Virus record (IMG/VR): IMGVR_UViG_3300035670_007376
Coordinates: 18,905-82,904 of that record
Source: a virus
Lineage: Duplodnaviria > Heunggongvirae > Uroviricota > Caudoviricetes
Length of the DNA stretch: 64,000 nt
Direction: 5' to 3' (one strand)
Positions 5,337-35,267 of this stretch are shown piece after piece (position 1 is the first letter of the stretch; each line of letters opens with the position of its first letter). The notes beneath the pieces were generated by a model. It was not told the origin of the DNA. It worked only from the letters and a program-made list of their open reading frames with translations, and ran no database searches. Made by a program: the position numbers and the translations under genes.

Positions 5337-5463
5337 AATTATGTTTAAGAAAATTATTAATTGGGTTAAAAATAAAATATCCCAAAGAAAGAAAAAAAAG
5401 GAATTCCAAAAGAAATTAGAAGAATTAAGAAAAAGAGACCCATTTATTTACAAACATTAATAT

Positions 5464-21222: not shown

Positions 21223-23940
21223 ATGAAGATATTAGCCCACGCACCGTTTATTGGAACAACAGGATACGCCAATCATGCACGTTCATTTTTTTGTGCATTA
21301 AACAAATATCATACCGTAAAAGTTCGTAATCTAACCATTGGTAATAGTTGGAAGGGAATGAATAATCGTCCACATGACGGAGAACCATATTTCACGGATG
21401 AAATTGGTGACATGTTAATTTTACAGACACTATACAATCAAGACGGGTCTAGAAACGACCATAATATGTACGATTATAAAGGTGACTTTGTTCCCGACGT
21501 CCATATTATCTTAATGGAGACCAATAATCATTATTTCTATGAAGAATATGAAGGTTATAAAATTGCATACAATGTATGGGAATCAACAAGATATCCTGAT
21601 GAATTCTTTAAAAGATTATTTTATTTTGACGAAGTTTGGGTACCGACTCAATGGCAATTTGATTGTTTAGTTGAACAAGGTTATCCAAAAGAAAAGATAT
21701 TCATTGTACCTGAAGGTGTGGATATCGAAACCTTTAAACCAATTAAAAAGTTCCCAAAAAGAGAAAAAATACGTTTTGTACATTTTGGTAGATGGGATTA
21801 TAGAAAAGGTACTACAGAAATATTACAAGCATTTGCAGAAGAATTTAAAGATGTTGACGATGTCGAACTTCTGGCATCAGTTGAAAACCCATATCCATAC
21901 GATGGAATGAACTCAACCGAAGAAAGAGTTAAACATTATGGTATCGATACCAAGAATATCAAGTTTCTAAATTTCCCATCAAGAGAAGAATATGTAAATT
22001 ATTTACAAACCGCACACGTATTTGTTTCGTGTGCTCGAAGTGAGGGATGGAATTTACCTCTAATTGAGGCAATGGCGTGTGGAACACCTTCAATATACTC
22101 AGATTGGGGAGGTCAACTACAATTTGCCGAAGGTAAAGGTGTTCCGGTTCAAATTAAAGGATTGAGACCCGCAAACATTGAACATAAGGAGTGGCCGGGT
22201 GAATATTGTGAACCGGACTGGGATGATTTGAAGAGACAGATGAGACAAGCGTATGATTACAATACTGCGATGTGGATAAAAGCAGTCGGAGACTCTAAAG
22301 ATATTCACGAAAAATTCAATTGGGATTCGATTGCTAAAGGTGCGTGTGAAATTTTGGAAAGAAACAAGAAACCATTTGCATTTGTGACAACAGGTAATTT
22401 AGGTTATATGCCCGTAATTGAAAAATTGGTACAATCATTACTAGAATTTTCAGAACAAAAGATTATAGTTTACGGTGTAGATTGTGATGTACCTTTCGAT
22501 TACCCCAATGTAATCAAACGAAGAATTGACCCACCAAAAATATCTGAACACGATAAGTGGTATTGGAAACAATATGCTTGTTTAGAATCACTAAATGAAG
22601 GATTTGAATATCTGATATGGATTGATGGTGATGTGGTTGTGAATCATAATATTGATACTGTTAGAAAATATTTTAATAAAGTAGGTAGATATCCGTTGTC
22701 AGATATTCATGTCCAAGAAGAATTCTTTGGGATGTATGATAATGGAAATAAATCACAATTATTCAACGAAGAACTTGCCAAAAAATGGGGAATAGAAAAG
22801 GGTCAACCATACATGCATATTTGTTTCTTTGTTTATAATAACGGTTCAAAATCACACTTCCTACAAATATTAACAGAATACCGAACGTTAATAAAGGAAA
22901 ACCCTAAAGATTACAGTAAGTATTTTTTATGGAACGATGAAGGTATTGATAATGCATTGAGATGGGTTAATGGTTATACTAATCATTTACCACTATCAAA
23001 TTTTGATACATCATCTTATGACGGTGATGAGGGATTTATTGATAAAACATTACATCAGTTTTATAAATTTTGGAACGAAGAGGGACCACAAAACTTTAAT
23101 AGAATATTCGGATACCAATACATACCGAAAGATAAATCACAAATCATTTATTTTCACGGAAATAAAAACGCGGAGATTTCAGATAAAATGATTGAATTTA
23201 TAAAAATGCAACGAGATAAATCGTTCTATAAATCTAAGTCATTTTACACTGACGTTTATAAAATAGAAAAATTTGATGATTTATATGAATACGAAGGTAG
23301 TACAATGCAAGTTGCAGAAAAATTTGGTTGGGCACCTGCGATATTCCATGAAATTTACAACCTTAGAGATTATTACAAAGATAGAGAAAAAAGAATACAT
23401 GAAGGGGACACCGTAGTAGATTTAGGTGGAAACATCGGAATCTTCAACAGATGGGCTTATAGTGAGGGTGCAAGTAGAGTAATATCATTTGAACCTGATA
23501 GAAGATACTTTAAACTATTATCATTAAACGCTGACCCACGTTCAATTCTTTTTAATGGTGCGATGTCTAATTCTGTTGGTGAGATAAGATTACACGAAAC
23601 CGAACATTTAGGTGGGTCCACAATATTAGGTGATAGTGATGATGGTTATTTAGTTAGAACATATACGTTAGATTATCTTTTTGAAAGTGGGTTAATTGAC
23701 AAGATTGATTTCTTAAAAGTGGACATTGAGGGTGCTGAACATTATGCAATCCAAGGAATAAGTGATGAAAACTTAATGAAGGTTAAAACAATATCAATGG
23801 AATACCATCACAGTCATTTTAACTACGATGAAACACTAAGACAAAATTTAATAGACAGAATGTTAAAATTAGGATTCAATTCTTATTTAATGTTTATGGG
23901 TTCAAATAATGCATTACAAATGTTATATTTCACAAGATGA
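21223..23940 (+). CDS. three-domain glycan-modifying enzyme: GT4 glycosyltransferase + GT-A-like domain + FkbM-family methyltransferase
   Basis: N-terminal third has SEGWNLPLIEAMACGTPSIYSD (GT4 EX7E region). The middle has a DxD-type domain (YLIWIDGDVVV). The C-terminus has VVDLGGNIGIF...VISFEPD...LKVDIEGAEHYAI (FkbM/Methyltransf_21). Confidence 0.65.
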   Translation: MKILAHAPFIGTTGYANHARSFFCALNKYHTVKVRNLTIGNSWKGMNNRPHDGEPYFTDEIGDMLILQTLYNQDGSRNDHNMYDYKGDFVPDVHIILMETNNHYFYEEYEGYKIAYNVWESTRYPDEFFKRLFYFDEVWVPTQWQFDCLVEQGYPKEKIFIVPEGVDIETFKPIKKFPKREKIRFVHFGRWDYRKGTTEILQAFAEEFKDVDDVELLASVENPYPYDGMNSTEERVKHYGIDTKNIKFLNFPSREEYVNYLQTAHVFVSCARSEGWNLPLIEAMACGTPSIYSDWGGQLQFAEGKGVPVQIKGLRPANIEHKEWPGEYCEPDWDDLKRQMRQAYDYNTAMWIKAVGDSKDIHEKFNWDSIAKGACEILERNKKPFAFVTTGNLGYMPVIEKLVQSLLEFSEQKIIVYGVDCDVPFDYPNVIKRRIDPPKISEHDKWYWKQYACLESLNEGFEYLIWIDGDVVVNHNIDTVRKYFNKVGRYPLSDIHVQEEFFGMYDNGNKSQLFNEELAKKWGIEKGQPYMHICFFVYNNGSKSHFLQILTEYRTLIKENPKDYSKYFLWNDEGIDNALRWVNGYTNHLPLSNFDTSSYDGDEGFIDKTLHQFYKFWNEEGPQNFNRIFGYQYIPKDKSQIIYFHGNKNAEISDKMIEFIKMQRDKSFYKSKSFYTDVYKIEKFDDLYEYEGSTMQVAEKFGWAPAIFHEIYNLRDYYKDREKRIHEGDTVVDLGGNIGIFNRWAYSEGASRVISFEPDRRYFKLLSLNADPRSILFNGAMSNSVGEIRLHETEHLGGSTILGDSDDGYLVRTYTLDYLFESGLIDKIDFLKVDIEGAEHYAIQGISDENLMKVKTISMEYHHSHFNYDETLRQNLIDRMLKLGFNSYLMFMGSNNALQMLYFTR

Positions 23941-24596
23941 GTACTTTAGATAAAATAGCGAAATCGTTCGGAACCGATAAATCTTCCGATAACCACAATT
24001 ACTGTGTTAAATATGAAAAATACTTACCATTTAAACGATATGATAAGTTAAATATTTTAGAAATTGGTGTGTTGGATGGTAAATCACTCCTAACTTGGAA
24101 AGAATATTACTACCGTTCTAACATATTAGGTATTGATATTAATCCTGATTGTAAGAAATATGAAGAGGATAGGATAAAAGTTGAAATTGGTTCACAGGAT
24201 GACCACGTTTTTTTAAATGATATCATGAGAGAATATGGTCCTTTTGATATGATATTAGATGATGGGTCACATATGAATGAACACATGATTTATTCTTTTG
24301 AACACTTGTTCCAATCCGTTAAATCGGGTGGTGTCTACGTAATTGAGGATATTGGTTGTTCCTATTGGTCTGATTATGGTGGAGGATACTTGAATCAAAA
24401 CTCGGCAGTTGAATATTTTAAAAGACTCTCTGATGATGTTAATTTTAGAGGGTTAATGAATATGAATCACACTAATGTACACGCAAGAAGAGAAGACGTA
24501 TTAGTTGAATTATCAAAACAAGTCCAACCAGGTTGTGTGACAAATATAGAATCAATAAACTTTCTAAATGGAATTATTATTATAACTAAACGATAA
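23937..24596 (+). CDS. class I SAM-dependent O-methyltransferase (CmcI/rhamnosyl-O-MTase-like)
   Basis: FGTDKSSDNHNY...ILEIGVLDGKSLLTWKEYY...ILGIDIN...MILDDGSH. Confidence 0.55.
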   Translation: MSTLDKIAKSFGTDKSSDNHNYCVKYEKYLPFKRYDKLNILEIGVLDGKSLLTWKEYYYRSNILGIDINPDCKKYEEDRIKVEIGSQDDHVFLNDIMREYGPFDMILDDGSHMNEHMIYSFEHLFQSVKSGGVYVIEDIGCSYWSDYGGGYLNQNSAVEYFKRLSDDVNFRGLMNMNHTNVHARREDVLVELSKQVQPGCVTNIESINFLNGIIIITKR

Positions 24597-26728
24597 TGGG
24601 ATATACTTTTGATGATGATGTTTTTATAATCGATTGTTGGTTGGATACAGAGGAAAAAGAGAAAACTCTTTTGAACTTAATAAATCGAGTTAAAATTTTT
24701 AACGTACCAATAATATTATGTGGACATTATCCTGTTAAACCGGAGATACAAAAAGAAGTTGATTATTTTTTATATGATAAGAATAATGATATTCTATTAG
24801 AAAAAGATTTTAACGAATACGGAGTTGTTAGTGATAGATGGACGATAATGAACAATTATAAAATCTTCAACAAAGTAGATTTCCATCATGACTATGCAAT
24901 ATGGATAACGATGAGAAATGCTTTTAATTTAGCAAAACAACTCGGTAAAAAATATATCCATTTTTTGGAATACGATAATTTACCCGACGAGGTACAATAT
25001 CGACAATCATTCATGGAATATGTTAGAAGTTTTGATGCGGTTGTCCTTGAGTATTCTGAAGGTTCCACCAAAGAAAGTCAACCATACAGTTCTACCTATA
25101 TATTTTCAATAAAGACCGATATTGCTGTCGAGTTAATTTCTAAGATTAACACTAAAGAGGAATATTTTAAAAATAGACCCAATGGATGGCAATTAGAGAA
25201 AGTTTTTTATCAAACGTTAAAAACAATAACGAATAATGTTTTTGTCAGTAAGTACATACCAAATGATGAGGAATTAAACATATATGCGGCTTGGAATAGA
25301 AATGGTATCTTAAGAAATGGTGCTCGTTTCCAAACTTATTTGGCGGTGGATAACCATAACAAACTTTACGTTCATTTTATTTCAGGGTTTTCCGAAAAGC
25401 CGGCCGATAAAGATTATCTTGTTGAGATAAATTACCATGACAGGAATCTTTTTTATAAGGTGGGTAAAGATACATATTCATTAGAATCATTAGGTGATTA
25501 TAAACAAGGAGAAACGGTTAAAGTTTTTTATCAGGGAGTTGAGGTATTCAAACAAGAGTTAAAAGACGATTTGGAAACATTTAAACGTAAGAACACTTTA
25601 GTTTGGAATACTGATAAATCCAATCTTAAAGTCAACATCAATTTTGTTGACGGACCATTTGTTGAGATTTTGAATGACATTGACTATAGATACTTAGTCC
25701 AATTTGTAGACAAAAAAAATGGTCAAATCGTTTATCAAACAGAACTTAGAAGTAACCATTGGGCCAAAGCTTCTCAAAAATATTATATCGAATGGGAAAT
25801 TAGAATCAAAGGAATTGATAACGATTACGAAGGTGTGTATCAATTCAACCCAAAAGGTAAAAGATTTTTAATAAGTTTTGAAACAAAATCATTGGGGGAT
25901 AACATAGCATTCATACCTTATGTCGATAAGTTTGCAAAGGAAAATGAATGTGAAGTAATTTGTACAACATTCCACAATGATTTATTTAAAGAACAATATC
26001 CTAATATCACTTTTGTTTTACCGGGTTCCACAGTTGATAATATATACGGTTTATACCGTTTAGGTATTTTTAATATTACAAATTCGGATAACACTAAAGA
26101 AATAAATTATGAATTCCACCCATATGACCCAATAAAAGAACCACTACAAAAAGTTGCGTCCGATATTTTAGGATTACAATATGAGGAAATACGACCTAAA
26201 TTACCAAAATTAGGTAAAAAAAAGAAAAAAATGGTGACCATTGCGGTTCACTCAACATCACAAGCAAAATATTGGAATAACAAAGGTGGATGGCAGGAGG
26301 TCGTTAATTATCTTAAATCCAAAGGTTATGAGGTTAGACTTTTATCCAAAGAAGAAGATGGTTACATGGGTAACATTAACCCCAAAGGAGTTACCCAACA
26401 ACCCGAAAGTACTGTTAGAGAAATATTAAAAACAATACAAGAATCTGAATTTTTTATTGGAATTAGTAGTGGTCTAAGTTGGTTGGCATGGGGTGGAGAA
26501 GTACCTGTTATTTTGATATCCGGATTCACAGACGTTTATTTGGAACCTTTTGAGGGTATCGAAAGAGTTATCAATAAAGAAGTTTGTCATGGATGTTGGC
26601 ACGTTTATGATTTTAATCCTGGTGATTGGTATTGGTGCCCCGTACATAAAAATACCGATAGACATTTTGAATGTTCAAAAGAAATCACACACCACAGTGT
26701 TATAGAGAAAATTGAAAAATTTTTATGA
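24596..26728 (+). CDS. two-domain protein with C-terminal GT9 (heptosyltransferase-like) domain
   Basis: C-terminus KKKKMVTIAVHSTSQAKYW...GISSGLSWLAWGGEVPVILISGFT matches the GT9 DSGpmHLAAAlGtPtvaLFG region. The N-terminal ~500 aa are unassigned. Confidence 0.5.
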   Translation: MGYTFDDDVFIIDCWLDTEEKEKTLLNLINRVKIFNVPIILCGHYPVKPEIQKEVDYFLYDKNNDILLEKDFNEYGVVSDRWTIMNNYKIFNKVDFHHDYAIWITMRNAFNLAKQLGKKYIHFLEYDNLPDEVQYRQSFMEYVRSFDAVVLEYSEGSTKESQPYSSTYIFSIKTDIAVELISKINTKEEYFKNRPNGWQLEKVFYQTLKTITNNVFVSKYIPNDEELNIYAAWNRNGILRNGARFQTYLAVDNHNKLYVHFISGFSEKPADKDYLVEINYHDRNLFYKVGKDTYSLESLGDYKQGETVKVFYQGVEVFKQELKDDLETFKRKNTLVWNTDKSNLKVNINFVDGPFVEILNDIDYRYLVQFVDKKNGQIVYQTELRSNHWAKASQKYYIEWEIRIKGIDNDYEGVYQFNPKGKRFLISFETKSLGDNIAFIPYVDKFAKENECEVICTTFHNDLFKEQYPNITFVLPGSTVDNIYGLYRLGIFNITNSDNTKEINYEFHPYDPIKEPLQKVASDILGLQYEEIRPKLPKLGKKKKKMVTIAVHSTSQAKYWNNKGGWQEVVNYLKSKGYEVRLLSKEEDGYMGNINPKGVTQQPESTVREILKTIQESEFFIGISSGLSWLAWGGEVPVILISGFTDVYLEPFEGIERVINKEVCHGCWHVYDFNPGDWYWCPVHKNTDRHFECSKEITHHSVIEKIEKFL

Positions 26729-26793
26729 GTCCTAGATAATTAGATACTTAAATACAATTGACGAGTATTTATATGGTATAATATAATATCTAG

Positions 26794-28830
26794 ATGAAAA
26801 TATTTGAACCATTTATTACGGGGTCTATTTCAGTATCTGGGTCGGCACATATCCAAGGTGATTTAACCGTTTTGGGGACGATAAATGCGACAATTAGTGG
26901 TACAACTTCCAATGCTATCAGTGCGTCATATGCGTCTAATGCAGATACAATAGACGGCATCGATTCTTCAAGATTGGCAACGACAGGTAGTAACACTTTT
27001 AGTGATGACCAAATTGTTACCGGCTCTATTAAGATTGATGGTGACTTATACATAAACGGAACACAGTATACAGCTGCAAGTTCCGGTACTTCAGGTACTT
27101 CAGGTACGTCAGGAACATCCGGTTCTTCGGGTAGTTCGGGTTCTTCAGGAACATCGGGTTCAAGTGGAACAAGTGGAACTTCTGGTTCTGATGGTTCTTC
27201 GGGAACAAGTGGAACATCAGGTTCTAGTGGTTCTTCGGGAAGCTCGGGTTCAGATGGTTCTTCAGGTACCTCGGGTTCATCAGGAACTAGTGGAACATCA
27301 GGTTCTAGTGGTTCTTCGGGTAGCTCAGGTTCATCAGGTAGTTCGGGGTCTAATGGTTCATCAGGAACATCAGGTAGTTCAGGAACAAGTGGAAGTTCAG
27401 GTACCTCAGGTTCATCGGGGTCTAGTGGCTCATCAGGGACATCAGGTTCTTCGGGAAGTTCAGGAACATCGGGTAGCTCAGGGTCTAGTGGGTCTTCAGG
27501 AACTTCTGGTACGTCAGGTAGTTCAGGAACATCTGGTTCTTCAGGAAGTTCAGGGAGTAGTGGAAGTTCAGGAACATCCGGCACTTCAGGAAGTTCAGGT
27601 TCTAGCGGTTCTTCGGGAACAGTAACATTATCGGGTACAACCGATAATGGTGTATTAACACTTAACGGGTCCTCACCAAATGTAACCGCAGAATCTAATT
27701 TAACATTTGACGGTACAACATTAACTGTTACGGGTGATATTTTAATAACTAATAATTTATTAGTCCAAGGTTCAACAACAAGTTTACAGGTTAATAATTT
27801 ATTAATTGAAGATAAATTAATAACATTAGCGAGTGGGTCAGCAACAGCGGCCGCCGCTAATGGCGCGGGTATCGAAGTGGTGGGACCGACAACGGCTGCC
27901 ACGATGACGTATGTTAATACCGATGATAGTTGGAATTTTAATAAGAAAGTTAATGTTCCATCACTAACCATCAATGGTACATCTTATTCTGCTGCCACTT
28001 CAGGTACATCGGGAACATCGGGTTCATCAGGTAGTTCGGGTTCATCGGGTACATCAGGTTCTAGTGGTTCAAGTGGTACTTCAGGAAGTAGTGGAACGTC
28101 TGGTAGTTCAGGTTCCAGTGGTTCGAGTGGTACCTCGGGTTCTAGTGGTTCTTCAGGAACTTCTGGTTCATCAGGTAGTTCAGGAAGTAGTGGAACTTCT
28201 GGTTCTTCAGGTTCTTCAGGAAGTAGTGGAACTTCAGGTTCCTCGGGAAGTTCCGGTTCATCGGGAACATCGGGGTCTAGTGGTAGTTCGGGAAGTAGTG
28301 GAACATCAGGGTCATCAGGAAGTTCTGGTTCATCAGGTAGTTCAGGTACAACAACGATAACAAATGCCGCTGAGGATAGAGTAATGACGAGTACAGGTGG
28401 TGTAGGGTTAAATGGTGAGGCTAACTTCACATTTAATGGTACCACCGCATACATTGCAGGAGCATTAGGTGTTGGAACTAATACCCCAACAACAACAGGT
28501 TTGATTAGAGCAACCAATGACGTTATTGCATATTATGGTTCAGATAGTAGATTAAAAGAAAATGTGACACCAATTTCAAACCCTATTGAGAAGATTCAAC
28601 AAATAGGTGGTTATGAATACGATTGGATTCCGATGGAAGGTATTCACGAAAATGAAGGACATGACATTGGGGTAATAGCACAGGAAATTGAATCAATATT
28701 ACCTGAAATCGTAACAACAAGGGAGAATGGTTACAAAGCGGTTAAATACGAAAGATTAGTTGCTTTACTTATCGAATGTGTTAAAGACCAACAAAAACAA
28801 ATAGATGAATTAAAATCTAAATTACAATAA
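26794..28830 (+). CDS. collagen-like (Gly-Ser/Thr-Ser)n tail-fibre protein with C-terminal peptidase-S74 intramolecular chaperone domain
   Basis: Two blocks of about 180 and 115 G-S/T-S triplets. The C-terminus SDSRLKENVTPI...GGYEYDWIP...GVIAQEIESILPEIV...YERLVALLIECVKDQQKQIDELKSKLQ is the S74 auto-processing chaperone domain. A terminator lies immediately downstream. Confidence 0.85.
   Translation: MKIFEPFITGSISVSGSAHIQGDLTVLGTINATISGTTSNAISASYASNADTIDGIDSSRLATTGSNTFSDDQIVTGSIKIDGDLYINGTQYTAASSGTSGTSGTSGTSGSSGSSGSSGTSGSSGTSGTSGSDGSSGTSGTSGSSGSSGSSGSDGSSGTSGSSGTSGTSGSSGSSGSSGSSGSSGSNGSSGTSGSSGTSGSSGTSGSSGSSGSSGTSGSSGSSGTSGSSGSSGSSGTSGTSGSSGTSGSSGSSGSSGSSGTSGTSGSSGSSGSSGTVTLSGTTDNGVLTLNGSSPNVTAESNLTFDGTTLTVTGDILITNNLLVQGSTTSLQVNNLLIEDKLITLASGSATAAAANGAGIEVVGPTTAATMTYVNTDDSWNFNKKVNVPSLTINGTSYSAATSGTSGTSGSSGSSGSSGTSGSSGSSGTSGSSGTSGSSGSSGSSGTSGSSGSSGTSGSSGSSGSSGTSGSSGSSGSSGTSGSSGSSGSSGTSGSSGSSGSSGTSGSSGSSGSSGSSGTTTITNAAEDRVMTSTGGVGLNGEANFTFNGTTAYIAGALGVGTNTPTTTGLIRATNDVIAYYGSDSRLKENVTPISNPIEKIQQIGGYEYDWIPMEGIHENEGHDIGVIAQEIESILPEIVTTRENGYKAVKYERLVALLIECVKDQQKQIDELKSKLQ
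27085..27621 (+). repeat. tandem 9-nt (GGN-WCN-WCN) coding repeat block 1, encoding (G-S/T-S)n
   Basis: Periodic GGT/GGA-ACT/TCT/AGT-TCA/TCG triplets of triplets. GC-richer than the surroundings. Confidence 0.85.
28003..28350 (+). repeat. tandem 9-nt coding repeat block 2, encoding (G-S/T-S)n
   Basis: Same degenerate repeat unit as block 1. Confidence 0.85.
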
Positions 28831-28833
28831 AAG

Positions 28834-28862
28834 AAAGGGACTCAATTGAGTCCCTTTTTTAT
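28834..28862. terminator. bidirectional rho-independent terminator shared by convergent genes
   Basis: Perfect palindrome AAAGGGACTCAA|TTGAGTCCCTTT followed by TTTTTT on + and a T-rich tract on -. The minus-gene stop codon lies within the stem. Confidence 0.8.
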
Positions 28863-29957
28863 TTCTATTAACATGTTACCAATTTGATACTCACCGGGTT
28901 CATAATAGGGAATAGACAAACGAAGCTTATGAAGATTTATTATATCTTCATTTGTAAACGGCTCTACTTCTATTATAACGACATCTACCGTATCTGTAAG
29001 GGTAAATTTAGACCTTAAATCATAACGTGTATTCTTTTGTTCGTTGTTAATGTAATCCTCAGGAATCTCACCTAAATCGATTTTATCAAAAAATGGTTCA
29101 ACATCAAATAATTTATTTTTACTACGAGTTTTCAATCCCATTGTAAATGTTTTATATGTAAAAACCGAGTCATCCCAATAATGTAATTCATTAAATGCGT
29201 GTATTGGTACACCCCATTTACGAACAAAGTTTCGATTTGATGATAATTCTATTTTTAATCTATCATTTTTATAATCATCACCAAATCGTGATGTCTGCGA
29301 AACAAAATGATAGGTTATAGCGGAATCACATGTTTTCAATTCGTATCCTTTTAGTTTCGCACGAATTAAAAAATCATCATCCTCACAAAATAGTGGTGCA
29401 AATGTAAAACCATCAAAATAACCCACATCCTCAAATAATTTTTTATATCCACTCATAAAAAATACCGCACCATTATATAGTTTGTCACTTTCTTTTTGTT
29501 GATTCACATAGTTGTTAAAATCATTATAATTAAAATCTCCAAATCCCGAACCTAAATCCATTATAACTTTACCAGGTCTTTTATGACCTGCAAAAATTGG
29601 AGGTTCGATTGTGGTATAAGACAATAACATATTCGGTTCCAACAACCTTTCAATAGACTCTAAAAATCCCTCACCAATAACCATATCGTTATGGATAAGA
29701 ACTAATTTTTCAGTATCAACTAATTTAATTGCGGTGTTATATGTGTCAGAAAATGTTAACCTATCATCATCATGAAATATTGTTAAATAATCGTCAGTTT
29801 CTGACATCTCCATTAACCACTCTTTTGTTCCGTCACTTGAACCACCACTACTAATAACAAACGGAACTTCTGGATACAATTCCCTCACCCGACGATAACA
29901 ATTTTTAGTTAAATCTAACTTGTTTAAAACTGCCAAAACAAATGAAATATTTCTCAT
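28842..29957 (-). CDS. GT2-family glycosyltransferase
   Basis: ISFVLAVLNKLDLTKNCYRRVRELYPEVPFVISSGGSSDGTKEWL matches the GT2 N-terminus. Confidence 0.55.
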   Translation of the reverse strand: MRNISFVLAVLNKLDLTKNCYRRVRELYPEVPFVISSGGSSDGTKEWLMEMSETDDYLTIFHDDDRLTFSDTYNTAIKLVDTEKLVLIHNDMVIGEGFLESIERLLEPNMLLSYTTIEPPIFAGHKRPGKVIMDLGSGFGDFNYNDFNNYVNQQKESDKLYNGAVFFMSGYKKLFEDVGYFDGFTFAPLFCEDDDFLIRAKLKGYELKTCDSAITYHFVSQTSRFGDDYKNDRLKIELSSNRNFVRKWGVPIHAFNELHYWDDSVFTYKTFTMGLKTRSKNKLFDVEPFFDKIDLGEIPEDYINNEQKNTRYDLRSKFTLTDTVDVVIIEVEPFTNEDIINLHKLRLSIPYYEPGEYQIGNMLIEIKKGLN

Positions 29958-30517
29958 CTTAATGAATTGTATATCGATAAAACTTTATCGATAAATTTTT
30001 TATTTTGTGACTTATCATAACACTCAATTGCAAAATAACCGTCAGCTTCATATGTTGGTAACATCCATCTCGATTCACCAATAATATCAACAGACACTAA
30101 AAAATTATGACTATCTATTTTTTGTAATTTAACTTGGTCCCCTTTTAACCTTATTATGCCGTTTTTTAATGATTGTTTAAAATGTATAAAATCATTATCT
30201 AAATTTTTAACATTTTCCCAGAAATCTTTGTGCATCGAAGTATCATCATCATTAAAATAAACATACCCTTCTTTCACTAAATCTAATGCGTAATTTCTTT
30301 GGGAATTACCAAATTTACTTTTACTATTTCTATGTAAATACGTTTCACAATTTTCAGGTATAAGTTCTTTTTCGGGTAACTCATCTAAATCAAATACAAC
30401 AATCCATCGATAATTTTCTTTAGGAATGTTAATACTTTCACTTATTTTATGTAGATTTTTCGGTCTACTACACGGGGTTATAATATTGATATACATGTTT
30501 AAACTCTTTTTATCCAA
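29954..30517 (-). CDS. GT-A-fold glycosyltransferase-like protein
   Basis: MYINIITPCSRPKNLHKISESI...WIVVFD resembles the GT2/GT-A N-terminal core. Confidence 0.4.
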   Translation of the reverse strand: MDKKSLNMYINIITPCSRPKNLHKISESINIPKENYRWIVVFDLDELPEKELIPENCETYLHRNSKSKFGNSQRNYALDLVKEGYVYFNDDDTSMHKDFWENVKNLDNDFIHFKQSLKNGIIRLKGDQVKLQKIDSHNFLVSVDIIGESRWMLPTYEADGYFAIECYDKSQNKKFIDKVLSIYNSLR

Positions 30518-31044
30518 CTGGTGTCTTTGAAAATTTTATCTGGACCACCTAACTCCTCATGAACAACTTTAATAACACCCTCCCAATTTTTGTGGTAATC
30601 GTGACCACCAATAAACCCTGAGTTTGGTATCAATTTAATATAATTTTTTAAATCTTTTTTTACTTGTTCGTATGTGTGTAATCCGTCTATGTAAATAAAA
30701 TCAAACGTTTCATTTTGTAACTCTAAAAAAGCATCATCCGAAGTCTTTCTTATGTGTTTAATATTTTTTAATTCATTAATTTTTAAAACGAATAATTCAT
30801 ACACATTATCGAAGTCCATATAACTGCAGGCTGGGTCATCTAAATCGTAATCATTTAAAAATGGGTCAATAGATAAAACACTTTTAAAATGTTTTGAAAA
30901 TATTTCAGTGGACTCACCAGCATATGAACCAATCTCAATCATACACATATTTTTTGTGTCGGAATATTGGTTAATATAATCAATTAAATCCATAAGACCA
31001 TCACTATATATTTGGTCTCTCATTTTATATAATAAATTTTTCAT
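30499..31044 (-). CDS. class I SAM-dependent O-methyltransferase (TylF/MycF-like)
   Basis: MIEIGSYAGESTEIFSKHFKSVLSIDP. Confidence 0.5.
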   Translation of the reverse strand: MKNLLYKMRDQIYSDGLMDLIDYINQYSDTKNMCMIEIGSYAGESTEIFSKHFKSVLSIDPFLNDYDLDDPACSYMDFDNVYELFVLKINELKNIKHIRKTSDDAFLELQNETFDFIYIDGLHTYEQVKKDLKNYIKLIPNSGFIGGHDYHKNWEGVIKVVHEELGGPDKIFKDTSWIKRV

Positions 31045-31046
31045 AA

Positions 31047-31628
31047 CTAATTGTGAACGTAAAGAGGTTTTTCAATGTATCTAATACTTCCATTAGGAAA
31101 TCTTTTCAAGTACTCCTCAACAAATAAACCATCACCATATACTTTTGTGATATCTATTTTCATTTGTTGACCAAATTCTCTTCTAACCATAAAATTACCG
31201 ATGTCGATTCTACCGATATGTGGTGCACATTTTATAAGATGGTATTGATACTGTGTCCAATTGTGTACCATATCACAATAAACAAAATGTACATTATTAG
31301 GTGAACCAGCATTTAAAAAATGGTCAACAAAAACAGGTGTGTAGTAATTATCATCACCACTCATAACAACCCATTCTTCGGTTGCATTTTCTAATCCGTA
31401 ATTTCTTGGAGTGTGACCCCAATCATTGTGTCTTTTTTCTAATGTTGTAAATTTAATCCTCTCATCACCCCCAAAATATTTTACAACTTTATCATAACCT
31501 TCTTCTTGTGGACCATCAGCAATAACATGTATTTTCCATTTATCACTTCTTTGTGAATAGATGGAATTTATTACACACATTAAATTATTTGGTCTGTTAT
31601 ATGTTGGAATGATAAACTCTATTTTCAT
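31047..31628 (-). CDS. GT2-family glycosyltransferase
   Basis: MKIEFIIPTYNRPNNLMCVINSIYSQRSDKWKIHVIADG. Confidence 0.7.
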   Translation of the reverse strand: MKIEFIIPTYNRPNNLMCVINSIYSQRSDKWKIHVIADGPQEEGYDKVVKYFGGDERIKFTTLEKRHNDWGHTPRNYGLENATEEWVVMSGDDNYYTPVFVDHFLNAGSPNNVHFVYCDMVHNWTQYQYHLIKCAPHIGRIDIGNFMVRREFGQQMKIDITKVYGDGLFVEEYLKRFPNGSIRYIEKPLYVHN

Positions 31629-31639
31629 AATTTTAAACT

Positions 31640-31873
31640 TTAATAAGAATGTGTGTCTTTTATGTCTTTAGGTAATTTCCACCCTTTTTTAATACTTCTT
31701 AATCCAAGACAGGTTGTTAGGAAAAAGAATTGGAATAACCATAACCCTGTTACCCAACCACCTTTTTGCATCTCATCATAAAAATACAAAGCAAAACCAT
31801 TAAGGTAAATGATTAAAGATAAAAAGGTAATAATTTGTTCATTATTTTTCCAAAAATTAATAATATTTTTCAT
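31640..31873 (-). CDS. small membrane protein
   Basis: 77 aa with two hydrophobic segments. Confidence 0.4.
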   Translation of the reverse strand: MKNIINFWKNNEQIITFLSLIIYLNGFALYFYDEMQKGGWVTGLWLFQFFFLTTCLGLRSIKKGWKLPKDIKDTHSY

Positions 31874-31876
31874 AAT

Positions 31877-32869
31877 TTATTTTTTCCAAAAACTATATAT
31901 TCCTTTATCTAATTCGTATGAATCCCATACGAATCTCTCTCTTTTTGGTTGAGTCTTTGCCCATTCCCACATTTTAGTTAGTCCATCATGTAATGATGTT
32001 TTATCTGAATAACCTAACAACTCAACAGACTTTTGCCAAGTCGGATAAGCGTTTTTAACCTCATGACGTTGTTCTTTATAAACAACATCTGAACCCGATA
32101 TAACATCTCTTAAAACTTTATTGGCTTCGTTAATTGTGTAATGTTTAGTTCCACCTAAATTTATAATCTCTTTAGAACATTCAGGTAGGTATGATGATTT
32201 CCATAACCCCTCTAAACAATCGTCAATATAACTAAAAGCTCTTTTTTGTTCACCATCACCAAAAATTGTCATCGGTTCCCCGTTCATATGTTGATACATC
32301 CAAATACCCAATACGTTTCGATACTTGTCCCAAATGTTTTGTTTTATACCGTATACGTTGTGTGGTCGAATGATACACCAATCTAAACCGTGTTGTTCAC
32401 CGGCAACTCTAATGTCCATTTCACAACCATATTTTGCAATACCATACGGGTCAATTGGTGCTGGTAGTTGAGACTCATCAAAGATATCACCATTACCGTG
32501 ACCATAAACCGCCATTGTTGATGTAAAGATTAATCTTTTAACGTCATGTTTAATACATTGATTGATTACTCTCGCAGTTGCCACTAAATTATTTTGATAA
32601 TTGTAACTCCTAATAAATGGTGATAAACCTTCTGCAGCGTAAGCTGCCATATGATAGACATAATCAAATTTATTCACCTCAAAACAATTCTCAATTGGAT
32701 GGGTAACTAAATTCATTTGCCAAAACTCTACTTTAGGGTGGACATTTTCTTTATAACCACCACTTAAATCATCAATACCCACAACGTGTACGTCAGGATA
32801 ATTCTCAATAATATAATCTGCTAGTCTTGAGCCTAAAAGACCCGCAACACCTGTAATTAAAATCTTCAT
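31877..32869 (-). CDS. NAD-dependent sugar epimerase/dehydratase (extended SDR)
   Basis: MKILITGVAGLLGSRLADYI (GxxGxxG), YGIAKYGCE (YxxxK), HNVYG. Confidence 0.8.
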   Translation of the reverse strand: MKILITGVAGLLGSRLADYIIENYPDVHVVGIDDLSGGYKENVHPKVEFWQMNLVTHPIENCFEVNKFDYVYHMAAYAAEGLSPFIRSYNYQNNLVATARVINQCIKHDVKRLIFTSTMAVYGHGNGDIFDESQLPAPIDPYGIAKYGCEMDIRVAGEQHGLDWCIIRPHNVYGIKQNIWDKYRNVLGIWMYQHMNGEPMTIFGDGEQKRAFSYIDDCLEGLWKSSYLPECSKEIINLGGTKHYTINEANKVLRDVISGSDVVYKEQRHEVKNAYPTWQKSVELLGYSDKTSLHDGLTKMWEWAKTQPKRERFVWDSYELDKGIYSFWKK

Positions 32870-33513
32870 ATTGTATTATAAAATTTATTTTGTTTTTCTT
32901 GTTTAGTTATTGTTTTATGATGTTGGATACAATAAACTTCATCGTAAGGTAATGTTGAAAATATCTGTCCACCAACAATTCGTTCGTGTACTTTACCATA
33001 CCAACTCATCCCCTTTCTATAAATTCGACCTTGGTAGTCAGGAAAATTAATCCATCCTTTTTCGTTGACTTTCCAATTCCAATTTTTAATATGTGACTCA
33101 GTGATACCATTAACAGTATTAATCCTTGGAACAAAAATTAAATCAACCTTAGGGTTCATTAGTAGTATTTCGTGTAGATTCCCAATCATATACTCATCGA
33201 CCATTTCATCCGCATCTATTTGATAGATGTAATCTCCCGTACAATATTCACTAAGTTTATTTTTCCAATCTGCGAAATTATTGTTCCACCAAAGACCTCT
33301 CCATGTTTGAACGTTTGGTTTGATATTAAATGGTAATAGATATTCTAAAACTTCAGAACTACCATTTTTTTCATCATATAAAATGACAATTTCATCTTCA
33401 ATTCTTTTATGTTCTAAAAGAAATGGGAGTAATTTTTTTATCTCCTCTAATTCGTTACATACTGTTATAGCAAAACTTATTTTCATAATGTTTCTCTTCC
33501 GATATTCATCCAA
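32866..33513 (-). CDS. GT2-like glycosyltransferase
   Basis: MKISFAITVCNELEEIKKLLPFLLEH...EIVILYDEKNGSSEVLEYL, with DADE further on. Confidence 0.5.
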   Translation of the reverse strand: MDEYRKRNIMKISFAITVCNELEEIKKLLPFLLEHKRIEDEIVILYDEKNGSSEVLEYLLPFNIKPNVQTWRGLWWNNNFADWKNKLSEYCTGDYIYQIDADEMVDEYMIGNLHEILLMNPKVDLIFVPRINTVNGITESHIKNWNWKVNEKGWINFPDYQGRIYRKGMSWYGKVHERIVGGQIFSTLPYDEVYCIQHHKTITKQEKQNKFYNTI

Positions 33514-33758
33514 CGCCCTAAGTAATCAGCACGTTCTTGTAAATCGTTTAATTGTGCTCCGCCGTTTATTCTTCTCGTTATCCTATTTAAAATATCGTTA
33601 TCGATTGTTCTTGCAATTTCTTCAGACATTATTCTGGTTAATTCGGACTCAGCATCAATTGTCTCCGTAAGATTCGAATCTTGAGCAATTTGTGGTGACC
33701 AAACCACCGTCATTTGGTTATTACTAATACCACGAAAAAATTTAAAATTTCTAACCAT
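33483..33758 (-). CDS. small protein with N-terminal FKFFRG motif (tandem paralog)
   Basis: MVRNFKFFRGISNNQMT... The track start at 33776 is a TTG. The ATG at 33758 directly follows the upstream stop. Confidence 0.45.
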   Translation of the reverse strand: MVRNFKFFRGISNNQMTVVWSPQIAQDSNLTETIDAESELTRIMSEEIARTIDNDILNRITRRINGGAQLNDLQERADYLGRWMNIGRETL

Positions 33759-34011
33759 CTTGTCTCCCCCTAGCAAATATTTTAAATGTTCTGTTGTTAT
33801 GATTAAATGTAATGTTACCGTCCGTAGTTGGTGCGACAGTAATTGTTAAGTTCTCAGTACCCGTACCAAAAACAACCGGTTCATCATCATCAAATTGAAA
33901 ACAATATTCATTGTTAAGATTTTGTTGTTGAGGTCTTAGTGATAAAACCTGCGTTGGTTCCAATCTTAAAAAATAATTATTTTCATTGCCTCTCAGAAAC
34001 TTAAAGTCCAT
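33751..34011 (-). CDS. small protein with N-terminal FKFLRG motif (tandem paralog)
   Basis: MDFKFLRGNENNYF... The ATG overlaps the upstream stop as TAATG. Confidence 0.45.
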   Translation of the reverse strand: MDFKFLRGNENNYFLRLEPTQVLSLRPQQQNLNNEYCFQFDDDEPVVFGTGTENLTITVAPTTDGNITFNHNNRTFKIFARGRQDG

Positions 34012-35267
34012 TACTTAATTTTTGTTAATTTCGGAAGAACTAATTTTTGTTCTTTTGGTTTATTTAAAAAGGGATTTAAAATTATCTTAAATGATTCCGT
34101 CATTTTATCTAAGGTATATTTCTCAGAGTTAATCTCTCTTAATTTTTCCGACCTATTTTTAAAATCTTCATAATCTCTTTTAACTATTTTCATAACCTCA
34201 ACAAATTCATTGTAATTGGCTGTGAACCATTTAGAACCTTTAATGATAAAATTATCAATCACACTATCATGTACTTCAGTAAGTTTACCACCAATCATAA
34301 CCGCCTTGTCCATTGGTAAAAAGTCCTTATGACCTGACCAGTTAGATGCAATTATCGGTTTACCGGTCATTGAAAATTCTAATAACGGTCTACCAAACCC
34401 TTCACCTTTAGTTATTGATACCATTGATTTAACTTTTGGATGATTATACAAATCATTCATTTCATTATCAGTCAAATCACCAAACAATAAGTAAATTGAT
34501 GGAGGAGTTTGTGTAACACTATAAGAGATTGTCTCAATTTTTTTTCTTAATTCCTCTCTTTGTTTTACTGAGAAATGTGCTGATGATGTTTTAAGTATTA
34601 AACCTGGTTTGTCCACCTCATCTTTAAATGATTCAACAAAACATTTTATTAACATCCCAACATCCTTTCTATCTTGACCCATATCACCTTTTAACCAATG
34701 ACCAACAAAAAGATAGTTAAAATCTTCCTTTAAACCTAATTCTAGGTCGTTATATTTGTTATTAAAAATATTCGTATCAACACCTTCAAACAAAACTTCT
34801 ACAGGTTTTTCTATTCTATGTTGTTTAACTAATTTACCCGTAGTCTTTTCATTTTCATTATAAACGGTTTGTAATAGAACATCTTTCGAAAAATTAGATG
34901 TTGTGATTACCAAATCCATTCTATTACACCCATCAATCCAATCTTTTGGAGCTATTGTCGTTTCGATACCGGCAGTTATTCCAATATTAAACTTACCCAT
35001 TCTTTGAAATTCATTTGGTACGGTGACTTGAACGTAAATGTCAGGTTGTTTTGGTATTAACCCTGTAACGATATTCCGCTCAATCCATTGATGGAACGGA
35101 TTTCCATTTTCCAATGCCGTTGTTGGTGTGGACCCCCATGGGCAACTATCGATATTAATATCAAATAAGTCCATTTTATATAATGACTCTAACAAATCTC
35201 TTGAATGACCACCATATCCACTTCTTGTTTTCACTGGTCCTCTAAATAATAAAAATGGTTTACTCAT
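34011..35267 (-). CDS. GT4-family (GT-B) glycosyltransferase
   Basis: GEGFGRPLLEFSMTGKPIIASNWSGHKDFL is the GT4 EX7E region. Confidence 0.7.
   Translation of the reverse strand: MSKPFLLFRGPVKTRSGYGGHSRDLLESLYKMDLFDINIDSCPWGSTPTTALENGNPFHQWIERNIVTGLIPKQPDIYVQVTVPNEFQRMGKFNIGITAGIETTIAPKDWIDGCNRMDLVITTSNFSKDVLLQTVYNENEKTTGKLVKQHRIEKPVEVLFEGVDTNIFNNKYNDLELGLKEDFNYLFVGHWLKGDMGQDRKDVGMLIKCFVESFKDEVDKPGLILKTSSAHFSVKQREELRKKIETISYSVTQTPPSIYLLFGDLTDNEMNDLYNHPKVKSMVSITKGEGFGRPLLEFSMTGKPIIASNWSGHKDFLPMDKAVMIGGKLTEVHDSVIDNFIIKGSKWFTANYNEFVEVMKIVKRDYEDFKNRSEKLREINSEKYTLDKMTESFKIILNPFLNKPKEQKLVLPKLTKIK

Follow-up and report, generated by a model that had tools for sequence, protein, structure and literature searches.

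Within the 64,000-nucleotide stretch of DNA that we analyzed (the window), a gene predicted to encode a collagen-like tail fibre with a self-cleaving C-terminus lies directly downstream of a gene for a putative protein glycosyltransferase, and both sit in an island of sugar-modifying genes (Table 1). The fibre occupies a single open reading frame with exactly the limits proposed in the initial annotation, and the hairpin that follows it, terminator-like on both strands, is common to the fibre gene and the convergent GT2 gene. A sigma-70-like site at 26758-26787 was considered as a separate promoter and rejected; it is a consensus match only, and because it ends 6 nt before the fibre ATG it is not credible promoter evidence. 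Homologues of the fibre number in the thousands, the exact fibre sequence is not on record in public assemblies, and a tblastn search with the fibre N-terminus against isolated phages returned no match.

Table 1. Features of the fibre locus (positions in the window; aa, residues of the encoded protein)
Feature	Position	Strand	Remarks
GT4-FkbM methyltransferase fusion, 905 aa	21223..23940	+	In relatives fused to BAHT protein
Methyltransferase-like protein	23937..24596	+	Methyltransf_24 25.9 bits, Pfam cut-off 26.3; between GT4-FkbM and BAHT genes
Gene for 710-aa bifunctional-looking enzyme	24596..26728	+	Ends 65 bp upstream of fibre ATG
BAHT domain, aa 341-708	25616..26719	+	D435, T554, K558, W629, C664/C667/C681/C693
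Fibre gene, 678 aa	26794..28830	+	Start confirmed by conserved N-terminus MKIF(E/D)..(T/S)GS common to homologues
N-terminal domain, aa 1-97	26794..27084	+	Conserved in homologues; presumed virion attachment
Collagen-like run 1, aa 98-277, 60 triplets	27085..27624	+	~52 nm if triple-helical
Non-repeat node, aa 278-403	27625..28002	+	Low-confidence predicted beta strands; ends in INGTSYSAATS
Collagen-like run 2, aa 404-520, 39 triplets	28003..28353	+	~34 nm if triple-helical
Distal segment, aa 521-582	28354..28539	+	C-terminus of mature fibre if cleaved (...NDVIAYYG)
Peptidase_S74 intramolecular chaperone, aa 583-678	28540..28827	+	Predicted Ser583 nucleophile, Lys588 (S-D-S-R-L-K)
Hairpin, 13-bp stem then T run	28831..28860	.	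Directly 3' of fibre stop codon
Convergent sugar-gene block	28842..36625	-	Syntenic in relatives; putative fibre-modifying role

Both repeat runs proceed without any Gly-X-Y interruption and are separated by a 126-aa non-repeat spacer. Run 1 consists of 34 GSS, 22 GTS, 2 GSD, 1 GSN and 1 GTV triplets and run 2 of 27 GSS, 11 GTS and 1 GTT; Ser or Thr fills the X position of all 99 triplets and Ser the Y position of 94 of 99, with Ser or Thr at 194 of the 198 X/Y positions (158 Ser). These 198 positions hold no Pro, no Lys, Arg or Glu, and 2 Asp, and the runs lack the imino acids or charge pairs that act as stabilizers in collagens such as Scl2 and EPclA. The two runs, the non-repeat domain between them and the absence of Pro and Lys are as the initial annotation described, but its figure of ~295 triplets was too high by a factor of three; the actual count is 60 + 39 = 99 triplets (297 residues), and the earlier reader therefore mixed up residues and triplets. 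Because the repeats are without Pro or Lys, we also rejected hydroxylation of fibre prolines or lysines by the 2OG-Fe(II) oxygenases encoded nearby. Each run is preceded by a conserved junction motif, INGTxYxAAxS, and the copy before run 1 likewise reads INGTSYSAATS. When the protein was shuffled 1000 times, its longest Gly-X-Y run had a mean of 3.6 triplets and never exceeded 11; runs in relatives extend up to 350-885 triplets. The repeat is kept at the protein level, with scrambled codons: 33 distinct 9-nt units encode the 5 tripeptides, and GSS alone occurs in 16 nucleotide versions with a mean pairwise identity of 0.64. An AF2 monomer model of aa 268-678 built with 40 homologues had a mean pLDDT of 48.8 and rendered the repeat as coil at pLDDT ~33, low confidence being expected because an obligate intertwined trimer would here be modelled as a monomer. 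Strands in this low-confidence model hint at the beta-rich character that had been claimed for the middle domain.

The C-terminal motifs that had led to the call of an S74 chaperone (SDSRLKEN, GYEYDW and IAQEIE) are all present, and PF13884 matched aa 583-640 of 678 above its cut-off (E 2.9e-16, 59.9 bits against 22). The columns of Ser583 and Lys588, the Lys five residues downstream of the Ser, are invariant in 40 homologues. PDB matches of this region include S16 gp37, 8jov and MYRF; the fibre GSDSRLK aligned to SSDRRIK in the S74/ICA matches (phage S16 gp37) and to ADLRAK in MYRF 7dc3, where Ala stands at the position of the fibre Ser, and the Ser/Lys motif falls on the corresponding motif in 6f45 and 7dc3. 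Judged by profile match and residue conservation, the fibre C-terminus is a bona fide Peptidase_S74 domain with an intact dyad, and self-cleavage before Ser583 is predicted. The domain would serve as the trimerization and registration module adjoining the collagen runs, being C-terminal to the repeats. A PHROGs search placed the protein among tail-fibre families, and Pfam Collagen matched it at E 5e-42, but this match is composition-driven. Taken with the PF13884 and PDB matches, these searches bear out the proposed architecture of a collagen-like fibre ending in an intramolecular chaperone.

The 710-aa product of the upstream gene has three parts: a GT-A/nucleotidyltransferase-like fold (aa 1-220), a beta-sandwich (aa 245-337) and, at aa 341-708, a bacterial autotransporter heptosyltransferase (BAHT) domain, the TibC/Aah-type protein-serine O-heptosyltransferase. 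This last part matched TIGR04414 (autotransporter strand-loop-strand O-heptosyltransferase) over profile positions 7-373 of 374 with 266.3 bits against an equivalog cut-off of 200, whereas the LPS heptosyltransferase I profile TIGR02193 gave 27.8 bits against a cut-off of 185. The enzyme matched the TibC structure 4rap at E 3.7e-51, and plasmid Aah is 35% identical to the BAHT domain over 100% of its length. Residues D110, T226, K230 and W305 of TibC and the iron-finger cysteines C339, C342, C358 and C370, all essential in that enzyme (PMC4358343), correspond to D435, T554, K558 and W629 and to C664, C667, C681 and C693. Among 69 distinct phage homologues, 64-68 retain each of D, T, K and W, and 68 retain the four Cys. 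From these alignments, the upstream protein is assigned a full-length TibC/Aah-family domain with its catalytic Asp and iron-finger residues intact. Three of the four donor contacts of TibC are kept along with the catalytic Asp; the fourth, Arg286, which contacts the adenine of ADP-heptose in TibC, is replaced by Ile610 and is Arg in 6 of the 69 phage homologues, which mostly have V, I, L or T. With Arg286 not conserved, the donor may therefore not be ADP-heptose. NCBIfam and Pfam scans of the window for ADP-heptose pathway genes returned only generic SDR epimerases below cut-offs. TibC glycosylates Ser and not Thr, and the acceptors known for BAHT enzymes are serines within strand-loop-strand motifs of autotransporters with a beta-helical fold (PMC4358343). 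No autotransporter neighbours the enzyme here; the adjoining gene is the phage fibre. The Ser-only acceptor use of TibC fits the Ser at 94 of 99 Y positions of the fibre. As a counter-point, the known acceptors are not collagen-type, and the fibre's own Ser-rich beta segments could be the true acceptor.

The glycan island that had been proposed around the fibre was found at 21.2-36.6 kb, with eight products of glycosyltransferase type, seven of which pass the Pfam cut-off, as well as methyltransferases and an epimerase. The convergent block comprises genes for a GT2, a GT2-like protein, a methyltransferase, a GT2, an NAD-dependent sugar epimerase/dehydratase, a GT2, two small ORFs and two GT1-type proteins. 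With at least 36 kb of sugar-modifying genes around one fibre gene, the region has the make-up of the host recognition cluster of marine T4-like phages, a large hypervariable region with tail-fibre genes and many glycosyltransferases (PMC7029224). The closest S74 match of the fibre is in Pelagibacter phage HTVC008M, which also has halogenase and 2OG-oxygenase gene types in common with the window. When 25 kb of the window was compared with isolated phages by megablast, the only match was a short one to thymidylate synthase, and we therefore place the lineage no finer than large T4-like/aquatic myovirus-like; a tRNA scan found no tRNA genes. A giant-virus origin was considered for the low GC and one GVMAG-labelled relative and is disfavoured by the pelagiphage/cyanophage-closest S74 fibres, an M23 endolysin-like protein, PcfJ, Dam/Dcm methylases and a Gp23-like ORF.

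Across viruses, the linkage between enzyme and fibre genes is conserved and selective for Ser/Thr-type Gly-X-Y repeats. In public viral contigs with flanks of 6-8 kb, a collagen-like ORF (Gly-X-Y, at least 6 triplets) was found at 38 of 80 viral BAHT loci and at none of 80 control loci seeded on ThyX in phages of the same kind (Fisher p 2e-14, kinship ignored). At 26 BAHT loci it is the very next ORF, co-oriented and 36-142 bp away, and 15 of 24 BAHT clusters at 70% identity have the linkage, leaving ~9 of 24 lineages without a nearby collagen ORF. When we compared dereplicated S74 fibres, BAHT was directly upstream of 14 of 18 with Ser/Thr-type Gly-X-Y repeats and of 0 of 19 Pro-type or repeat-free fibres (p 5e-7, kinship ignored; all 14 positives of this set fall in two N-terminal fibre families), while the other 4 of the 18 Ser/Thr-type fibres had no BAHT within reach. 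The BAHT-linked collagen ORFs within ~3 kb are all essentially Pro-free (P at most 0.07), with Ser/Thr dominating every long run, and show at least 9 unrelated N-termini. The same cluster is present in megaphage LR756501.

The pairing extends to bacteria: in the Methylobacter luteus chromosome, 44 bp separate BAHT from an upstream gene for a secreted, Pro-free protein with GTA/GTS repeats, and in a Paceibacteria MAG the ORF found ~1 kb upstream of BAHT is a (GSS)n one with ~16 triplets. Neither partner is a fibre, and the repeat is the sole feature that the two have in common with the phage fibre. Neighbouring island genes are also found joined to the enzyme, with GT4, FkbM and BAHT forming one 1000-aa protein at one locus (L003), and a protein of Microcystis phage Mel-JY01 joins a GT4 to the GT-A-like and BAHT parts and is encoded next to a Ser-rich structural protein that has no Gly-X-Y repeat. 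Literature searches for publications on TibC/BAHT in phages, on glycosylated phage tail fibres or on an enzyme-fibre link found nothing relevant.

Taken together, we think it probable that the gene encodes an O-glycosylated, self-cleaving homotrimeric fibre of a large aquatic tailed phage, with sugars added by the upstream BAHT enzyme. Such a fibre would consist of an N-terminal attachment domain, (Gly-Ser/Thr-Ser)60, a beta node, (Gly-Ser/Thr-Ser)39, a short distal domain and the S74 chaperone, which would trimerize three chains, register them from the C-terminal end and then cut itself off before Ser583 via the Ser583/Lys588 dyad to leave a 582-residue mature fibre. The BAHT domain would O-glycosylate serine hydroxyls of the fibre while it is being made in the host cytoplasm. 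Side chains at collagen X and Y positions point outward in a triple helix, and the 158 Ser at these positions would be the most probable acceptors if the runs adopt that fold. The first sugar, whichever it may be, is probably extended or decorated by the GT4, the FkbM methyltransferase and the GT-A-like domain, which are fused to BAHT in relatives, and other island genes may also contribute to the coat. The coat may stiffen, hydrate and protect the fibre, making up for the missing proline and charge pairs. The initial annotation had viewed the fibre as a probable glycosylation scaffold, a guess from its proximity to the island and from the premise that a Pro-free repeat should be unstable unless glycosylated; the TibC/Aah-type gene directly upstream and its selective pairing with Ser/Thr repeats speak for that role, while the modification itself we infer. 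The pairing in divergent phages and two bacteria suggests that the fibres carry a sugar coat and that host remodelling is not the only function of the surrounding sugar genes. A wider proposal, which we regard as possible and advance more tentatively, is a class of proline-free (Gly-Ser/Thr-Ser/Asn)n glyco-collagens, hyper-O-glycosylated on their serines by a dedicated BAHT-family enzyme from the adjacent gene, in many aquatic tailed-phage lineages and some bacteria.

In pelagimyophages and cyanomyophages, such clusters have been interpreted in print as serving host-surface modification (PMC7029224; PMC12801897), and the fibre could correspondingly be unmodified, with the island and BAHT acting on host surface glycans or proteins in superinfection exclusion or receptor masking, and with fibre and glycosyltransferases together only as members of the hypervariable cluster that serves host recognition in marine T4-like phages. 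This would account for the loci that keep the BAHT-GT2 junction with the fibre gene absent (L018-L022) and for the many BAHT loci without a collagen ORF, and the phage collagen-like fibre EPclA, studied experimentally, is not glycosylated (PMC3368898). We nevertheless consider it unlikely, given the immediate, co-oriented upstream position of BAHT, the dependence of the pairing on repeat type among S74 fibres, its recurrence in Methylobacter and the Paceibacteria MAG with partners that are not fibres, and the fact that the enzyme reaches equivalog level for a protein glycosyltransferase but not for LPS heptosyltransferases.

Gly-Ser repeats are classic flexible linkers, and a different possibility is that BAHT glycosylates beta-structured Ser-rich segments of the virion (such as the fibre N-terminal domain or node, or the tail sheath), the runs being flexible or mucin-like spacers joined only at trimeric nodes. 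Known BAHT acceptors are indeed loops of beta-helices, the fused enzyme of Mel-JY01 lies beside a structural protein lacking Gly-X-Y, BAHT precedes a sheath-like protein at loci L080-L087, and both the AF2 coil and the want of the Pro or charge pairs that stabilize characterized bacterial and phage collagens fit a spacer. Against this, Gly recurs at every third residue throughout both unbroken runs despite scrambled codons, as it does in the far longer runs of relatives, which argues against a linker because triple-helix packing demands strict Gly and a linker does not; moreover, the linkage goes with the type of repeat; it does not go with Ser-rich beta segments, as these occur in BAHT-less fibres too, and the bacterial partners have only the repeat in common. 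We judge this explanation to be unlikely as well. That the repeat is instead non-coding or a DNA microsatellite of recent expansion, which would make the long ORF an artefact, has in its favour several alternative-frame ORFs overlapping the fibre ORF and many overlapping arrays reported by TRF. These arrays are degenerate (59-90% matches), however, all six Ser codons of both codon families are mixed, the Gly-X-Y frame runs on unbroken into conserved domains at both the N- and the C-terminus, and homologues number in the thousands, so that we regard this explanation as refuted by the data, with a negligible chance of being correct.

Glycosyltransferase islands of abundant ocean and lake phages are now read as host-surface or DNA modification, and if the virion fibre is the true target, these auxiliary genes need a new interpretation: a substantial share of the glycosyltransferase load in host recognition clusters of large marine and freshwater phages would coat the virion's own fibres and not the host envelope. 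Protein glycosylation would then count among the influences on adsorption and host range, and on how stable and how sticky particles are in the water column. The glyco-collagen helices, if they exist, would be tens to hundreds of nanometres long and would form a natural experiment on whether O-glycosylation by itself suffices to keep a triple helix together without imino acids or charge pairs. The substrate range of BAHT would likewise be extended beyond pathogen autotransporters, its sole known substrates. Enzyme and fibre form a compact two-gene system that is directly testable in E. coli, with glycosylated collagen-like materials as a possible use.

Among known systems, TibC-TibA and Aah-AIDA-I resemble this locus in the full-length, above-cut-off enzyme match with the catalytic Asp, the Thr/Lys/Trp contacts and the four-Cys iron finger, in the cytoplasmic Ser hyper-glycosylation (here presumed) of a long repetitive adhesin-like rod, and in a modifier gene directly upstream of its (here presumed) substrate gene, as in aah-aidA. 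They differ in that the presumed substrate here is a collagen-type phage fibre and not a beta-helical autotransporter passenger, and the phage enzyme has an extra N-terminal GT-A-like domain, with GT4/FkbM fusions in relatives. BclA of the Bacillus anthracis/cereus exosporium is likewise a prokaryotic collagen-like protein with a C-terminal trimerization domain, a trimer whose Gly-X-Thr repeats carry O-linked oligosaccharides and are polymorphic in number. Unlike the repeats here, those of BclA are mostly GPT and hence contain Pro, their rhamnose-based sugars come from unrelated enzymes, and the C-terminal domain is C1q/TNF-like and not cleaved off. EPclA/B of E. coli O157 prophages are also phage fibre proteins with collagen repeats, which form a proven triple helix between trimerization modules, but these non-glycosylated repeats contain much Pro and many charged residues (GPK, GPQ, GER) and melt at 42 C (PMC3368898), whereas the fibre described here has neither stabilizer. 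Mycobacteriophage glycosyltransferases modify their own virion proteins (Freeman et al. 2023, cited in PMC12619734); there, the targets are C-terminal tails of capsid and tail-tube subunits, and neither BAHT enzymes nor a collagen-like repeat are involved.

The S74 fibres and spikes (K1F endosialidase, T5 pb1, S16 gp37, phi29 gp12 and, in animals, MYRF) have in common with our fibre a C-terminal S74 domain with a Ser-x4-Lys dyad and a terminal helix, and the same order of trimerization and then self-cleavage is expected; their shafts fold as triple beta-helices or beta-prisms, whereas here S74 ends a collagen-type run. Triple helices zip up from the C-terminal end. Sugars on X and Y positions replace hydroxyproline as stabilizer in Riftia cuticle collagen, where galactose is borne by Thr in Pro-containing triplets, and Mimivirus encodes its own machinery for glycosylating virion fibres and collagen-like proteins, with glucose linked to hydroxylysine, these being a eukaryotic and a giant-virus system, respectively, unlike the tailed phage described here.

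ORF calling on the window returned the fibre gene, with a product of 678 aa, exactly where the initial annotation had placed it, and both of its collagen-like runs are free of any interruption, together holding 99 triplets or 297 residues. The annotated figure of about 295 triplets matches this residue count instead; the absence of Pro and Lys from the two Gly-Ser/Thr-Ser runs was borne out in full, with 194 of the 198 X and Y positions being Ser (158) or Thr (36). When the protein was shuffled, the longest Gly-X-Y run averaged 3.6 and never exceeded 11, against 60 and 39 in the fibre. TRF found only degenerate arrays in the repeat DNA (59-90% matches, no clean microsatellite), the five tripeptides are encoded by 33 distinct 9-nt units, and GSS is spelled 16 ways with both TCN and AGY codons in use, indicating that the periodicity is kept at the protein level. 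ORFs in other frames that overlap the gene were dismissed as by-products of the repeat. Judging from the sequence, hundreds of residues with no break in the Gly register would be hard to explain other than by a triple helix, in which case the runs would be about 52 and 34 nm long (computed at 2.9 Å per residue).

The Pfam Collagen match (E 5e-42) is driven by composition, and PHROGs matches along the fibre are to tail-fibre families throughout. As annotated, the C-terminus is an S74 chaperone, with Peptidase_S74 at aa 583-640 (E 2.9e-16; 59.9 bits versus a cut-off of 22). For the last 158 residues, the matching structures are the S74 domains of gp37 from phage S16 (6f45) and of the 8jov tail fibre, together with a related domain, the autoprocessing part of MYRF (7dc3), and G-S-D-S-R-L-K falls on their cleavage motif. 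Across 40 aligned homologues, neither Ser583 nor Lys588 varies. S74 proteins use a Ser nucleophile with a Lys five residues on and are cut just before the Ser; by these rules the mature fibre should comprise residues 1-582, freeing a chaperone of 96 residues. Since the junction INGT(Q/S)Y(T/S)AA(S/T)S precedes each collagen run and similar GT(V/T)T(L/I) segments follow each, the fibre can be read as two tandem junction-helix-node modules. The 'beta-rich' domain described between the runs does appear as strands in an AF2 monomer model of aa 268-678, in which the repeat is coil and the terminal helix confident, but the model is poor (pLDDT 48.8).

Using the non-repeat parts of the fibre as query, we found 2775 proteins at E <= 1e-10, the top matches being mostly Collagen plus S74 proteins from contigs as long as 334 kb. 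Among the best 120 of these, 77 have at least six uninterrupted triplets, with X mostly S (51%), T (33%), A (6%) or P (5%) and Y mostly S (58%), N (22%), Q (7%) or T (5%). Triplet number is hugely variable, complete ORFs having between 8 and 406. At the upper end, four loci (L089-L091, L098) carry complete Ser/Thr-type fibres of 1.5-1.7 kaa with 340-406 triplets and no BAHT (TibC/Aah-type protein-serine O-heptosyltransferase domain) within 3.4-3.9 kb upstream, and L105 has a Ser/Thr-type repeat of 885 triplets that fills the upstream part of the locus, in an ORF truncated where the locus ends. Phages and polinton-like viruses are already known to carry collagen-like repeats joined to S74 chaperones (PMC12220804), so the fibre by itself belongs to a known kind. 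In isolated phages, the nearest matches come from Pelagibacter phage HTVC008M and from cyanomyophages, and they cover just the S74 part. Unusual gene types, such as those for a tryptophan halogenase and for a number of 2OG-Fe(II) oxygenases, are common to HTVC008M and the window, which also encodes PcfJ-like proteins, Dam/Dcm methylases and a protein resembling M23 endolysins. We conclude that the window comes from a large tailed phage of aquatic habitat with an apparent T4-like affinity.

Features of the fibre and of its surroundings (positions in the window unless marked aa)
Feature	Position	Strand	Detail
Carbamoyltransferase	3708-5336		further left; NodU/NolO-type
GT7C-like galactosyltransferase	5464-6831		further left
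Three 2OG-Fe(II) oxygenases and tryptophan halogenase	8987-9730, 13392-13961, 13925-15202, 18401-18967		further left
APS kinase	11897-12334		further left
GT2			further left
SET-domain protein	20812-21195		
GT4-FkbM fusion	21223-23940		upstream of fibre
Methyltransferase-like gene	23937-24596		upstream of fibre
710-aa protein gene	24596-26728	+	upstream of fibre; weak Pfam GT9 match
TTGACG-18-TATAAT	26758-26787		near-consensus; ends 6 nt before fibre ATG
Fibre gene	26794-28830	+	last of + strand block
Collagen-like run 1	aa 98-277		60 triplets: 34 GSS, 22 GTS, 2 GSD, 1 GSN, 1 GTV
Collagen-like run 2	aa 404-520		39 triplets: 27 GSS, 11 GTS, 1 GTT
Hairpin	28831-28860		13-bp stem; after fibre stop codon, facing convergent - strand block
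GT2, GT2-like, methyltransferase, GT2, SDR epimerase, GT2, two GT1-type proteins		-	downstream of fibre
Small ORF in glycosyltransferase block	33483-33776	-	97 aa
DNA methyltransferases	37157-37852, 45558-46538, 56871-57935		N6/N4 type (below Pfam cut-off); C5; Dam-like D12
Two adjacent large PcfJ-like genes	42159-45471		second only weakly PcfJ-like
IscA/HesB-like ORF	48468-48797		109 aa; iron-sulfur cluster assembly look by eye (…GGGCSG…CGCGESF)

The 'GT9' protein encoded just upstream of the fibre was ruled out as an LPS heptosyltransferase, scoring 27.8 bits to LPS heptosyltransferase I versus 266.3 to NCBIfam TIGR04414, the autotransporter strand-loop-strand O-heptosyltransferases (Aah/TibC). 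The latter match spans aa 341-708 of 710 and profile positions 7-373 of 374, above the equivalog cut-off of 200. TibC is the only PDB sequence match (E 3.7e-51), and plasmid-borne Aah is 35% identical over 100% of the BAHT domain. TibC and Aah are cytoplasmic hyper-glycosylases of a long repetitive adhesin encoded directly downstream. When the essential TibC residues (PMC4358343) are aligned to the window enzyme, the catalytic base Asp110 corresponds to D435, the donor contacts Thr226, Lys230 and Trp305 to T554, K558 and W629, and the iron-finger Cys 339/342/358/370 to C664/667/681/693; Pro300 is Ser, as in Aah. The sole mapped essential residue to be replaced is Arg286, a weak adenine contact, which is Ile610 here and mostly V/I/L/T in phage homologues, while the Asp, Thr, Lys, Trp and Cys set is kept in 64-68 of 69 distinct ones. 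The enzyme may thus use a nucleotide-sugar other than ADP-heptose as its donor; the 64-kb window contains no recognised gene of the heptose pathway.

To examine the enzyme-fibre linkage, public viral contigs were seeded with BAHT, with S74 or, as a control, with thymidylate synthase. A Gly-X-Y ORF of at least six triplets is present in 38 of the 80 BAHT-seeded loci (882 kb), and in 26 of those 38 it is the next ORF downstream, after a gap of 36-142 bp and nearly always co-oriented. The control loci (80, 905 kb), seeded with the window's thymidylate synthase at up to 76% identity and from the same sort of phages, yielded collagen ORFs in 0 of 80 (Fisher p 2e-14, kinship ignored) and likewise no S74 ORF or BAHT. 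In the dereplicated S74 set, limited to loci with 2.5 kb or more of DNA upstream, BAHT lies directly upstream of 14 of 18 Ser/Thr-type fibres (S+T >= 0.7, Pro < 0.05) versus 0 of 19 Pro-containing or repeat-free ones (p 5e-7, kinship ignored), all 14 coming from two N-terminal families. Every collagen ORF within about 3 kb of BAHT is essentially Pro-free (Pro at most 0.07), and nearby runs of at least 24 triplets have S+T of 0.73-0.99 in all but one; lower values (0.52-0.54) occur in L074 (12 triplets) and L025 (22). Clustered at 70% identity, the BAHT domains form 24 lineages, 15 of them linked to a collagen ORF. Taken together, we consider it somewhat probable that the upstream enzyme O-glycosylates the fibre, which would be a specific mechanism with comparative support and no longer a guess from proximity. 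The pair offers a concrete two-gene hypothesis that is directly testable.

What the enzyme would modify within the fibre can be judged from its partners. The BAHT-linked collagen proteins, with up to 350 triplets, have at least nine unrelated N-termini. Only two relatives were found in cellular genomes, and both repeat the pattern: in Methylobacter luteus (L248), a signal-peptide protein with Pro-free GTA/GTS triplets (4944-5804) ends 44 bp before BAHT (5848-7143), and in a Paceibacteria MAG (L249), a (GSS)n ORF (4610-4969, about 16 triplets) lies about 1 kb upstream of a possibly disrupted BAHT. In a 735-kb megaphage, too, a large GT and a GT plus BAHT cluster with a collagen-like ORF. As these partners are alike in the repeat alone, the collagen repeat itself is most likely the acceptor. 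Known BAHT acceptors, however, are beta-helix loops, modified at serines and not threonines (PMC4358343), which leaves the fibre's own Ser-rich beta segments as an alternative acceptor. The enzyme family probably has further virion targets too, since about 9 of the 24 lineages have no collagen ORF within locus reach and in L080-L087 and L042 (ORF start ~7220) BAHT is followed by a gene product some 1300 aa long (in L042, 764 aa) with a tail-sheath-like N-terminus (…SPGVFTRENDLS…), a neighbour that hints at BAHT-type modification of other virion proteins. In the isolated Microcystis phage Mel-JY01 (PP395634.1, L006 3065-4591 and 4750-8430), a 1226-aa GT4, GT-A-like and BAHT fusion annotated merely as 'methyltransferase FkbM' adjoins a Ser-rich 'structural protein' without Gly-X-Y repeats, providing a tractable system for virion glycosylation tests.

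The sugar-modifying island could instead act on the host. Its layout is like that of the pelagimyophage 'host recognition cluster', in which the glycosyltransferases have been read as modifiers of the host O-chain (PMC7029224), and a like reading is published for cyanomyophages (PMC12801897). The order GT4/FkbM - (MT) - GT9 - fibre - ... - GT2 ... GT1 is kept on independent contigs of 188, 214 and 334 kb. Loci L018-L022 (~7100-8220) keep the window's BAHT-GT2 junction with the fibre gene absent, and the fibre gene appears to behave as an insertion/deletion within the island. Besides the proposed modification by the BAHT enzyme, a part for the remaining island genes in modifying the fibre is a possibility. 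The carbamoyltransferase, GT7C-like, APS kinase and SET-domain genes suggest an elaborately decorated product (methyl, carbamoyl and perhaps sulfate, with APS kinase as a possible sulfation supply). The oxygenases were ruled out as prolyl or lysyl hydroxylases of this fibre because its repeats have no Pro or Lys.

Several smaller features were also observed. The promoter-like site before the fibre ATG, where no Shine-Dalgarno sequence is visible, could reflect a leaderless start, a phage-specific promoter or chance. The small ORF in the glycosyltransferase block is conserved, and its counterparts in relatives, about 80 aa long (L001 18418-18657, L003 17009-17251, L004 20115-20357), have a precomputed Pfam match to Gp23, the T4 major capsid protein.

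The searchable literature yielded no account of phages that encode BAHT-family enzymes, of Ser/Thr-type collagen repeats paired with such enzymes or of phage tail fibres of this type that are glycosylated. The separate elements have precedents: BclA is a glycosylated collagen-like protein, worm cuticle collagen is Thr-glycosylated (as cited in PMC3368898), and virion glycosylation is known in mycobacteriophages (as cited in PMC12619734). The collagens Scl2 and phage fibre EPclA are stabilised by Pro and charge pairs, and EPclA melts at 42 °C demonstrably without glycosylation (PMC3368898), whereas the (GSS)n repeats of the fibre have neither Pro nor charge pairs.
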